From: a virus
Taxonomy: Duplodnaviria; Heunggongvirae; Uroviricota; Caudoviricetes
Direction: 5' to 3' (one strand)
Virus record (IMG/VR): IMGVR_UViG_2690315994_000032
Length of the DNA stretch: 13,558 nt
Shown here: positions 698 through 13,558 of the stretch, one piece after another
How positions within the stretch are numbered: position 1 is the first letter of the stretch
How the letters are laid out: each line of letters opens with the position of its first letter
Notes under the pieces: model-generated
What the model was told of the DNA's origin: nothing
Databases searched by the model: none
The model's input: the letters and a program-made list of their open reading frames with translations, nothing else
Made by a program: the position numbers and the translations under genes

Positions 698-1060
698 GGG
701 GCTGATTCTGGATTCGACGGGATTTGCGAAACCCAAGGTGCATGCCGAGGGGCGGTTGGCCTCGTAAAAAGCCGCAAAAAATAGTCGCAAACGACGAAAA
801 CTACGCTTTAGCAGCTTAATAACCTGCTTAGAGCCCTCTCTCCCTAGCCTCCGCTCTTAGGACGGGGATCAAGAGAGGTCAAACCCAAAAGAGATCGCGT
901 GGAAGCCCTGCCTGGGGTTGAAGCGTTAAAACTTAATCAGGCTAGTTTGTTAGTGGCGTGTCCGTCCGCAGCTGGCAAGCGAATGTAAAGACTGACTAAG
1001 CATGTAGTACCGAGGATGTAGGAATTTCGGACGCGGGTTCAACTCCCGCCAGCTCCACCA
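698..1060 (+). ncRNA. ssrA: tmRNA (transfer-messenger RNA, SsrA)
   Basis: 363-nt sequence starting GGGGCTGATTCTGGATTCGACGGG and ending GGTTCAACTCCCGCCAGCTCCACCA. It has the tRNA-like acceptor/T-arm ends and an internal tag frame, and matches the E. coli tmRNA as I recall it. Confidence 0.96.
787..819 (+). other. tmRNA tag-peptide reading frame (resume codon GCA; encodes ANDENYALAA, stop TAA)
   Basis: GCA AAC GAC GAA AAC TAC GCT TTA GCA GCT TAA read directly from the sequence inside ssrA; this is the canonical enterobacterial degradation tag. Confidence 0.9.
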
Positions 1061-1070
1061 AATAAATCAA

Positions 1071-1099
1071 GGGGTTACGTGAAAGCGTAGCCCCTTTTT
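1071..1099 (+). terminator. Rho-independent terminator downstream of ssrA
   Basis: GC-rich hairpin GGGGTTACG-tgaaag-CGTAGCCCC followed by TTTTT, 10 nt after the tmRNA 3' CCA. Confidence 0.75.
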
Positions 1100-1118
1100 C
1101 TTAGGTAGTGGCGGCAAA

Positions 1119-1157
1119 ATGGCGACAGACTTTTGCGTCCATCTTGCCTGTCGCCAT
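1119..1157. repeat. Perfect 10-bp inverted repeat ATGGCGACAG-N19-CTGTCGCCAT (candidate operator or structured leader)
   Basis: Arms at 1119-1128 and 1148-1157 are exact reverse complements, read directly. The element ends 27 bp upstream of the ATG of the 160-aa ORF. Confidence 0.5.
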
Positions 1158-1183
1158 CTTGAAATCATGCAAAGAGGTTTGAC

Positions 1184-1666
1184 ATGGAAGAACTTCACTT
1201 TGTTTACATCAATGCAAATGGTCGTATCGGTGTTCACTCAATACAGAGCATCAGTTATAGCGAAAATCACATACAGGGCATTTGTAAGAACACCGATCGA
1301 ATAAAAACCTTCCGAAAAGACCGCATTCTTAAACAATACGATTCACAAGAACAAGCCATTCAGGAATGCGCGTCATTCCTCCCCGAAAACTACTCACATC
1401 TCACTAAGCAGTCAGGTCCGAAAAAAAATACATTCGATGTGTGTTTCACCGGATTTAAGAAAGCAGATAAAGAAAGGTTGGTTGATAAGGCGAATGAACA
1501 AGGATTAACGGTAAGAACATCTGTAACCCAAAACCTTCAGATGCTCTGTTGCGGTTACAATGCAGGCCCATCAAAAGTATCGGCAGCCAGGATGAAAGGC
1601 ACTATCATCATAGATGAGCCTGGCTTTATACATTTTCTTGAAACGGGTGAGATCCCAGATGAATAA
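1184..1666 (+). CDS. Hypothetical 160-aa protein with WYL-like N-terminal and BRCT-like C-terminal domains (accessory/cargo gene at the prophage end)
   Basis: ORF with good SD (AAGAGG at 1172-1177, 6-nt spacer to ATG 1184). Visibly AT-rich compared with flanking genes. N-terminal segment YINANGRIGVHSIQSISYSENHIQGICKNTDRIKTFRKDRI fits the WYL-domain pattern; C-terminal segment FDVCFTGF...GLTVRTSVTQNLQMLCCGYNAGPSKVSAARMKGTIIIDEPGF fits a LigA-type BRCT motif. Domain calls are by motif recognition only. Confidence 0.7.
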   Translation: MEELHFVYINANGRIGVHSIQSISYSENHIQGICKNTDRIKTFRKDRILKQYDSQEQAIQECASFLPENYSHLTKQSGPKKNTFDVCFTGFKKADKERLVDKANEQGLTVRTSVTQNLQMLCCGYNAGPSKVSAARMKGTIIIDEPGFIHFLETGEIPDE

Positions 1667-1694
1667 AAACCTGCCGTAGCAGGTTCTCTTTCTT
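1665..1694. terminator. Bidirectional rho-independent terminator between convergent ORF160 and ogr
   Basis: Hairpin ACCTGC-cgta-GCAGGT (1669-1684) flanked by an A-run upstream and a T-rich run downstream, placed exactly between the two convergent stop codons. Confidence 0.6.
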
Positions 1695-1911
1695 AAAAAT
1701 TCATATGGCCCTGACCACCTGGCAATGGATGTGGAGGGGCTGTGGCAATCACTGCAGGTGTCACAATAAACCGGACCACTGTTTCATGGGTAACAAAAGT
1801 GCTCCCGCAGTTAATATTTTGGCACTGGCAGTAACGCTCTTTGGTGCTTTCTGTTACTTGAAAACTGCTCCTTGTGTGCGCCGCATGACCACACTTTGGA
1901 CAATTCATCAT
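1693..1911 (-). CDS. ogr: Ogr/Delta-family zinc-finger late-gene transcriptional activator
   Basis: Translation MMNCPKCGHAAHTRSSFQVTESTKERYCQCQNINCGSTFVTHETVVRFIVTP...PHPLPGG has the C-x2-C...C-x4-C zinc-finger arrangement and length (about 72 aa) of P2 Ogr. The six-frame ORF extends to 1956, but the MM start at 1911/1908 matches the Ogr N-terminus. Confidence 0.85.
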   Translation of the reverse strand: MMNCPKCGHAAHTRSSFQVTESTKERYCQCQNINCGSTFVTHETVVRFIVTPAVIATAPPHPLPGGQGHMNF

Positions 1912-12956: not shown

Positions 12957-13558
12957 TGAATAAAGCTGTATTAAATAGCGAACTCATTGCCATAAAAGCG
13001 GGAGATATTACCGTTTATAATTATGATGGTGAAACGCGGGAATATATTTCTACATCAACTGAATATCTCGCTGTCGGCGTCGGTATCCCGGCATGTTCCT
13101 GTCTGGATGCACCAGGTACACATAAAGCTGGTTATGCAATCTGTCGCTCTGTAGATTTAAATTCATGGGAATATGTGCCAGACCATCGCGGTGAAGTTGT
13201 CTATAGTACCGAAACGGGAGATACCAAAGAAATCACAGTTCCGGGTGATTACCCTGAAAATACAACCACTATCGCCCCATTAACGCCATACGATAAATGG
13301 GATGGTGAGAAATGGGTGACGGATACCGAGGCACAGCATAGCGCCGCACTAGACGCGGCAGAAGTAAAGCGCCAGTCGCTGATTGATGCTGCAATGGCTT
13401 CCATCAGTCTGATTCAACTGAAATTACAGGCCGGGCGGAAGCTGACGCAGCCAGAAAACACCCGACTTAACGCTGTGCTGGATTATATTGACGCGGTGAC
13501 GGCAACAGATACCAGCACAGCGCCGGACGTCATCTGGCCTGAACTGCCGGAGGCGTAG
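12953..13558 (+). CDS. G: Tail fibre assembly chaperone (P2 gpG / Mu U / Tfa family)
   Basis: 201-aa ORF with ATGA overlap to the H stop and GAGGG SD. The C-terminal region (…QSLIDAAMASISLIQLKLQAGRKLTQPENTRLNAVLDYIDAVTATDTSTAPDVIWPELP) is the conserved Tfa chaperone motif. The stop codon is the last 3 bases of the window. Confidence 0.88.
   Translation: MMNKAVLNSELIAIKAGDITVYNYDGETREYISTSTEYLAVGVGIPACSCLDAPGTHKAGYAICRSVDLNSWEYVPDHRGEVVYSTETGDTKEITVPGDYPENTTTIAPLTPYDKWDGEKWVTDTEAQHSAALDAAEVKRQSLIDAAMASISLIQLKLQAGRKLTQPENTRLNAVLDYIDAVTATDTSTAPDVIWPELPEA

Follow-up and report, generated by a model that had tools for sequence, protein, structure and literature searches.

The palindrome between ssrA and ORF160 is probably a pair of integrase arm-type sites in the attachment region of prophage Cartapus

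We have analysed a perfect inverted repeat lying between the tmRNA gene ssrA and the small gene ORF160 in a stretch of 13,558 nucleotides, hereafter called the window, and we consider that this palindrome is probably composed of two arm-type binding sites of the heterobivalent tyrosine integrase (Int) of a prophage. The observations behind this reading are the identity of the motif, its clustering, the presence of two direct copies on each side of the attachment core, the conservation of these copies across phages and integration targets, and the 186-type Int encoded by the phage. From these observations we infer that the Int of the prophage binds these sites and that the inverted copy, the right arm of the palindrome, may serve as a third site.

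In terms of locus context, the window begins with smpB (1-483) and ssrA (698-1060, plus strand; ARAGORN, and Rfam RF00023 with 295.8 bits), the 3' end of which is the integration target, and then enters the ogr-side end of a P2/186-like prophage. Both E. coli LF82 and the deposited genome of its prophage, Cartapus, match the window at 100% identity; in the Cartapus genome, cI and int are followed by a 401-aa cargo gene, attP, ORF160, ogr and the tail genes. When the window was compared with the LF82 junction on the int side (L205) and with the Cartapus attP (L001), a 46-bp att common core emerged at 1016-1061 (plus strand). This core is identical in the phage attP and the two prophage junctions, and strand exchange occurs somewhere within it. 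Considering that the published boundary of the Cartapus prophage corresponds to window position 1062 (PMC9928086), all sequence rightward of the core, and with it the palindrome, belongs to the phage P' arm of attP. Cartapus has been reported to excise and to yield virion DNA at a low level (PMC9928086), indicating that its att sites are functional, and the junction in the window is one of the two excision substrates. We also observed that a 10-nt word, CACCAAATAA, is located at the boundary of the core and the P' arm (window 1056-1065; L001 3017-3026) and recurs in the P arm 105 bp upstream (L001 2912-2921); this word is not conserved in phage MLG42 and is partly conserved in SEN8.

Directly after the CCA end of ssrA, between the core and the arm sites, the IHF consensus WATCAANNNNTTR is matched exactly by AATCAAGGGGTTA at 1065-1077 (plus strand), and we regard this match as a candidate H' bend site. 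The window contains two matches to the consensus versus 0.41 expected, the relatives carry the IHF-like site with one mismatch (AAACAAGGGGTTA), and the GenBank record of phage 186 shows an IHF DNase I footprint at the corresponding relative position. The match overlaps the 5' half of the stem of a phage-supplied intrinsic terminator (1069-1100, plus strand), which the terminator scan reported as a stem at 1069-1096 followed by a T-run. In the lysogen this terminator ends ssrA, and in the phage it ends the lysogenic int operon. Its counterparts are found in Fels-2, SEN8, MLG42 and a Klebsiella phage, and in 186 a 'predicted terminator of lysogenic operon' is annotated in the corresponding place. 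The first conserved phage gene past the P' arm is an ogr/B-like late-gene activator (1693-1911, minus strand; mapped from CARTA_31 of the Cartapus annotation).

The palindrome itself is located after the post-ssrA terminator and before the ORF160 start at 1184. Direct reading of the sequence gave the arms ATGGCGACAG (1119-1128) and CTGTCGCCAT (1148-1157) separated by a 19-nt spacer (1129-1147), so that the perfect 10-bp inverted repeat upstream of ORF160 described in the first-pass annotation is present as reported. When one mismatch was allowed in the repeat search, the arms grew to 14 nt, CAAAATGGCGACAG (1115-1128) and CTGTCGCCATCTTG (1148-1161), which are 93% complementary, with 13/14 identity. 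However, dinucleotide-preserving shuffles of the 13.5-kb window produced at least one perfect 10-nt inverted repeat with a loop of 3-40 nt in 39% of cases (mean 0.63 per shuffle), and the real window has three overlapping matches at two loci. Because a bare palindrome is this frequent by chance, its significance had to rest on the motif context. The palindrome per se is statistically unremarkable, and it is non-random since both of its arms copy a motif with a cluster of occurrences at the att site. Apart from this palindrome, the window has a single perfect inverted repeat of at least 10 nt with a short loop (13471-13481 and 13512-13522), which falls within the coding region of baseplate J and is probably due to chance.

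Both arms of the palindrome contain the octamer TGGCGRCA. The arm-repeat consensus of 186-type integrases is tgccGCCActt, the reverse complement of which is aagTGGCggca (PMC3448106). In the GenBank entry of phage 186, Int arm-type sites are given as predicted, with the consensus YAYCGCCAYTY (reverse complement RARTGGCGRTR); three of them are assigned to the B/ogr side and another two to the int side. In the window, the first site with this consensus is P'1, TGGCGGCA at 1109-1116 (plus strand), which is kept in all aligned relatives. The left arm of the palindrome (1119-1128, plus strand) carries P'2, TGGCGACA at 1120-1127, 11 bp from P'1, and the right arm (1148-1157, minus strand) carries TGGCGACA in inverted orientation at 1149-1156 and is a candidate inverted P'3. 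Together with their flanks, these sites read tagTGGCggca (P'1), aaaTGGCgaca (P'2) and agaTGGCgaca (inverted copy). Scored against RARTGGCGRTR, P'1 (TAGTGGCGGCA) matches at 9/11 positions, P'2 (AAATGGCGACA) at 10/11 and the inverted copy (AGATGGCGACA) at 9/11, and the TGGCG core is intact in all three. The first-pass annotation had offered three readings of the palindrome, namely an operator, a leader stem-loop and a part of the att arm-type architecture. Considering that both arms fit the 186-type Int arm-site consensus, both as published (PMC3448106) and as annotated in the 186 GenBank record, it is the third reading that is supported, whereas the operator and the stem-loop find little support in the evidence given below.

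The motif is concentrated at the attachment site. In the Cartapus attP, the int side shows TGGCGACA-N3-TGGCGGCA (L001 2864 and 2875) and the ogr side shows TGGCGGCA-N3-TGGCGACA (L001 3070 and 3081), each pair being 11 bp apart, and one inverted copy is added to these, giving five copies of TGGCGRCA in 255 bp of attP. The 6.7-kb locus has seven copies versus 0.54 expected, and none of 200 shuffles reached seven. By a naive estimate, another copy of the 8-mer would turn up in the 55-nt leader with a probability of approximately 0.003. The first-pass annotation had suggested looking for the half-site elsewhere in the prophage; across the window and the whole 33-kb Cartapus phage, we found scattered single matches only, with no other TGGCGRCA cluster and no operator-like pair.

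The integrase agrees with this motif. By BLASTP, Cartapus Int is 54% identical to 186 Int (E=2e-136), and in its N-terminal arm-binding segment residues 1-40 are near-identical to those of 186 Int, including W11, E14 and Y16; these W/E/Y positions have been proposed to discriminate 186-type from P2-type arm recognition (PMC3448106). In terms of class, the Cartapus sites share with 186-type arm sites the consensus, the paired direct copies on each side of the core, the accompanying 186-type Int N-terminus, and a motif that stays constant when the target changes. Cartapus Int would accordingly be expected at its arm sites by prediction from sequence, as is the case for 186, whose arm sites are themselves annotated as 'predicted'; our literature search found no open-access paper with the primary description of the 186 arm sites.

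The conservation of the left arm strengthens its assignment, and we are highly confident that it represents a genuine Int arm-type site, P'2, on the basis of the comparison among related phages. P'1 and P'2 keep an unchanged position in Fels-2, SEN8, Yersinia phage MLG42 and a Klebsiella phage, and the sequence similarity among these relatives, including Fels-2, stops directly after P'2. Among the loci gathered at that stage, a search of viral contigs for the P'1-P'2 pair returned 126 matches with 80 distinct downstream contexts. P'2 is thus kept regardless of the downstream cargo, with or without ORF160. The pair is also found downstream of tRNA-Met (at approximately 70 bp), tRNA-Leu and tmRNA genes, and phage 186 itself is integrated at tRNA-Ile. 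Arm sites, unlike core sites, would be expected to show such constancy across integration targets, as they go with the conserved N-terminal domain of Int and not with the target.

Based on this arrangement, a mechanism can be proposed for the P' arm, in which the core (1016-1061), the IHF-like site, the terminator, P'1 (1109-1116), P'2 (1120-1127) and the inverted copy (1149-1156) follow one another. On the model of lambda, P2 and 186, Int would occupy the TGGCGRCA sites P'1, P'2 and probably the inverted site through its N-terminal domain, while its C-terminal domains would be placed on the core at the 3' end of ssrA. A bend induced by IHF would then enable a single Int protomer to contact an arm site and a core site at once. 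Such bridging would assemble the intasome, for integration at attP and, together with Apl, for excision at the window junction and the int-side junction.

The right arm requires a more careful judgement, and we lean slightly towards its being a functional Int site and not a relic, considering the layouts seen in related attachment sites. In cargo-free Fels-2-like phages, a third direct copy stands 11-12 nt after P'2, directly before the ogr terminator, indicating that a third P' site is the norm. In the Cartapus type, the ORF160 cassette replaces the stretch that holds this direct P'3. The same arm of phage 186 reads GAGTGGCGATA GAATGGCGGTG gattttt TACCGCCACTT, i.e., two direct sites and one inverted site, and this layout is found in approximately 27 distinct relatives with gaps of 5-8 nt. 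In 18/27 of these, the inverted copy differs from P'2 at degenerate positions and retains its own consensus flank, AAGTGGCGGTA, a pattern that fits independent protein-binding sites rather than a selected hairpin. The inverted TACCGCCACTT plausibly accounts for the 'three sites' of the 186 annotation. As a side observation on that record, the arm-site feature starts at 20889 and the inverted TACCGCCACTT spans 20879-20889 (L126 1380-1390); the wording '3 sites to left' fits only when the inverted copy is included, and the coordinate may be a typographical error.

The contrary explanation is that only the left arm works, as P'2, and that the right arm is a non-functional by-product. It would have arisen by a local inverted duplication of P'2 when ORF160 replaced the ancestral third site, or it would have been carried in with the cassette, and it would not yet have decayed. 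We regard this explanation as rather unlikely, although several observations speak for it. The right arm is confined to the Cartapus-type ORF160 leader, and all 13 distinct sequences with a 21-nt gap after P'2 (13/13) are of this type. It is missing from the 11 MLG42-type loci, whose ORF160 is 70-74% identical, and only a degenerate inverted trace is present at L200 (59%), so that the orthologues of 59-74% identity have either no right arm or a degenerate trace of one; the third copy is also missing from phages with other cargo in the same slot. The conservation called for in the first-pass annotation splits in two: the left arm is conserved across phages, but the right arm is not found in the ORF160 orthologues of 70-74% identity. 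In addition, the cassette took over the stretch of the direct P'3, and the 13/14 identity of the arms, flanks included, exceeds what the consensus needs and suggests recent copying. Within the Cartapus lineage, the right arm is substituted at about the rate of the rest of the leader, with 2/10 positions varying. Its spacing is unlike that of the 186-type inverted site: the centres of the 8-mers of P'2 and the inverted copy are 29 bp apart here versus 15 bp in 186, out of helical phase. Finally, MLG42 is an isolated phage without any third site, indicating that a third site is dispensable, at least for lytic growth.

On the other side, the layout of two direct sites and one inverted site recurs independently in many 186-type attPs, and one of the two right-arm variants, CTATCGCCAT to TGGCGATA, stays within the consensus. 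Moreover, the right arm is present at 49 Cartapus-type loci (ORF160 identity of 96-100%), and the perfect palindrome is retained in 44/49 of them, although these loci are closely related.

Some further features of the leader were noted. A degenerate inverted arm-like copy, TGGACGCA, which matches at 6/8 positions, is located at 1134-1141 (minus strand); it is weak and may be due to chance. Together with the inverted copy at 1149-1156, it produces a direct repeat of CCATCTTG with copies 15 bp apart (1139-1146 and 1154-1161), the first of which belongs to the degenerate inverted arm-like TGCGTCCA (6/8), and the leader may contain a diverged tandem of inverted sites. We also considered the MLG42-type leader as a decayed inverted site and rejected this idea, since the GCCAA...GCC similarity was too weak. 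In some other 186-type attachment sites (L206, L214, L226 and L232), the P'2/inverted-P'3 palindrome is perfect, with arms of 9-12 bp, and has a short loop followed by a T-run; in these loci, the arm sites seem to act at the same time as an intrinsic terminator.

Immediately downstream of the palindrome, ORF160 (1184-1666, plus strand) is a small BRCT-domain cargo (moron) gene inserted into the P' arm, past P'2 and ahead of the ogr terminator. Its domain matches are Pfam BRCT (E=9e-4, under the cut-off) and phrog_2561 (E=2.5e-77); it is related to the C-terminus of NAD-dependent ligase and weakly matches PADLOC PDC-S48 (E=1.7e-7). The idea that ORF160 is a DNA-binding regulator was rejected, as Pfam, PHROGs, PADLOC, NCBIfam and the PDB gave only BRCT, LigA C-terminus and RFC1-BRCT similarity. 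ORF160 is one of two Cartapus morons expressed in the LF82 lysogen, at 15-fold over the prophage background (PMC9928086). A scan of 480-2000 predicted no sigma-70-like promoter between 1100 and 1183, and the terminator calls near ORF160 are at 1069-1096 and 1668-1685.

The part of the P' arm right after P'2 is a cargo-insertion slot, which in the window spans 1129-1692 and in the Cartapus type holds ORF160. In Klebsiella phages, the slot (L004, 1067 onward) has a small ORF whose predicted N-terminus resembles a secretion signal; other phages have unrelated sequence there, and cargo-free phages run straight to the ogr terminator. On the other side, between the P arm and int (L001 1652-2857), Cartapus has its 401-aa cargo gene, for which the annotation is RES / NAD+-binding, and together with ORF160 this gene places cargo on both sides of attP.

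Considering this position, the P'2/inverted-P'3 pair could, besides its part in recombination, act as an Int-responsive control element of the BRCT cargo gene ORF160, an idea that we consider improbable. Int on the opposed sites may block or modulate read-through transcription or translation, or a hairpin may form in the read-through RNA. Since ORF160 has no recognisable promoter and stands behind the very strongly transcribed ssrA, a coupling of Int occupancy or ssrA read-through to ORF160 is possible. If this were true, the expression of the cargo would be tied to the integration or excision state.

An explanation at the RNA level alone, in which the repeat forms a stem-loop in the ORF160 5' leader or in the ssrA read-through and affects stability, processing or translation, is in our view very improbable. 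The isolated 53-nt segment does fold into a hairpin (-18.9 kcal/mol, z=-3.85), ORF160 is transcribed in the lysogen (PMC9928086), and with no promoter predicted between the terminator and the start codon, transcripts may cross the repeat. However, when 101 nt of sequence are folded, the minimum-energy structure is a different one, with P'1 paired to the right arm, and it is unremarkable (z=-1.37). The three independent natural variants G1128A, G1150A and G1153A in the Cartapus lineage each give an A-C mismatch with no compensation, so the leader stem-loop proposed in the first pass finds no covariation support. The hairpin is also missing from the orthologous leaders, and the left arm is kept in phages that have no downstream gene on that strand. 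An Rfam search at a permissive E-value returned the tmRNA as the only real match, the best score in the palindrome region being E=0.84, far under the gathering score.

Least credible of these is the idea that ORF160 is controlled by a dimeric transcription factor (ORF160 itself, CI or a host factor) with the palindrome as its operator, which we regard as barely tenable. The perfect palindrome directly upstream of ORF160 speaks for it, and the sequence ATCTTGA adjoining the right arm recurs in a putative CI operator palindrome of the switch region. Nevertheless, the palindrome is not conserved with ORF160, being absent from the 11 MLG42-type loci and L200, and phages lacking ORF160 also keep the left arm. 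With 29 bp from centre to centre, the half-sites are spaced in a manner atypical of a dimeric HTH operator, the half-site clusters nowhere else in the phage, and ORF160 shows similarity to BRCT domains only, with no DNA-binding domain found. ATCTTGA is also unenriched, with 8 copies observed versus 4.1 expected phage-wide. With regard to this heptamer, the copy at window 1156-1162 has a counterpart in the cI-apl switch region (L127 26466-26486), where it forms ACAATCTTGA-A-TCAAGATCGT between the TTGACA and TAATGT hexamers, probably the CI operator at pR; the link from the palindrome to a CI operator through ATCTTGA was rejected as probably due to chance, since no enrichment was seen. A LexA box and a terminator, both already discounted in the first-pass annotation, can be dismissed on the same grounds: the arms run ...ACAG-N19-CTGT..., with order and spacing wrong for CTGT-N8-ACAG, and the terminator scan reports nothing at 1119-1157, where the loop is 19 nt and the repeat is followed by CTTGAAATCA, with no T-run.

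With the palindrome read as a pair of Int arm-type sites, an operator-looking element downstream of ssrA in approximately 170 of 5,426 complete E. coli genomes would be explained as part of a prophage attachment site. It would be ordinary integration machinery, not to be pursued as the site of a new regulator. The analysis also yields a map of the Cartapus/Fels-2-type attP with its core, IHF-like site, terminator and three P'-arm sites. In this map, the third P' site is evolutionarily plastic, being direct, inverted at two spacings, or absent, and cargo is inserted inside the P' arm directly after P'2, which is relevant to integrase engineering and to the acquisition of morons near att sites. 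The arm sites of 186-type phages were already known as predicted consensus repeats, of which the left arm is a textbook example; to these, the right arm adds a different spacing of an arrangement that 186 already shows.

Compared with known systems, the Cartapus attP is closest in plan to that of phage 186. Both have the TGGCG core motif, Ints of 54% identity and integration at the 3' end of a tRNA-like gene, and in both the order is core, IHF site, terminator, two direct sites 11 bp apart, an inverted copy and then ogr/B. They differ in the motif (TGGCGRTR in 186 and TGGCGRCA in Cartapus), in the position of the inverted copy (7 nt past P'2 in 186 and 21 nt in Cartapus), in what comes next (the B terminator in 186 and the cargo gene ORF160 in Cartapus) and in the target (tRNA-Ile in 186 and ssrA in Cartapus). 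In phage lambda, the P' arm of attP comprises P'1, P'2 and P'3 together with H', an IHF site separates core and arm, and the arm sites are bound by the N-terminal domain of the heterobivalent Int. The number and layout of the sites are comparable in Cartapus, where they are predicted from the sequence, whereas the lambda motif is unrelated and the lambda P' sites are all direct repeats. On the side of the ssrA-integrating phages, Cartapus has been described as closely similar to Fels-2 (PMC9928086), and the attP of Fels-2/SopEPhi (Felsduovirus) at ssrA agrees with it in the 46-bp core region, in the terminator and in P'1 and P'2, which are identical. ORF160 is missing from Fels-2 and SEN8, in which P'2 is followed at 11 nt by a third direct copy, whereas Cartapus has an inverted copy at 21 nt and ORF160. 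In Cluster J mycobacteriophages, an inverted arm-type-like pair lies over the int start codon, and control of expression by Int through this pair has been raised as a possibility (PMC3706429). In both cases, an inverted arm-type-like pair is placed directly upstream of or over a gene start, and regulation is hypothetical in both; however, the phage group and the motif are different, and the gene that would be regulated is int in Cluster J and the BRCT cargo gene in Cartapus.
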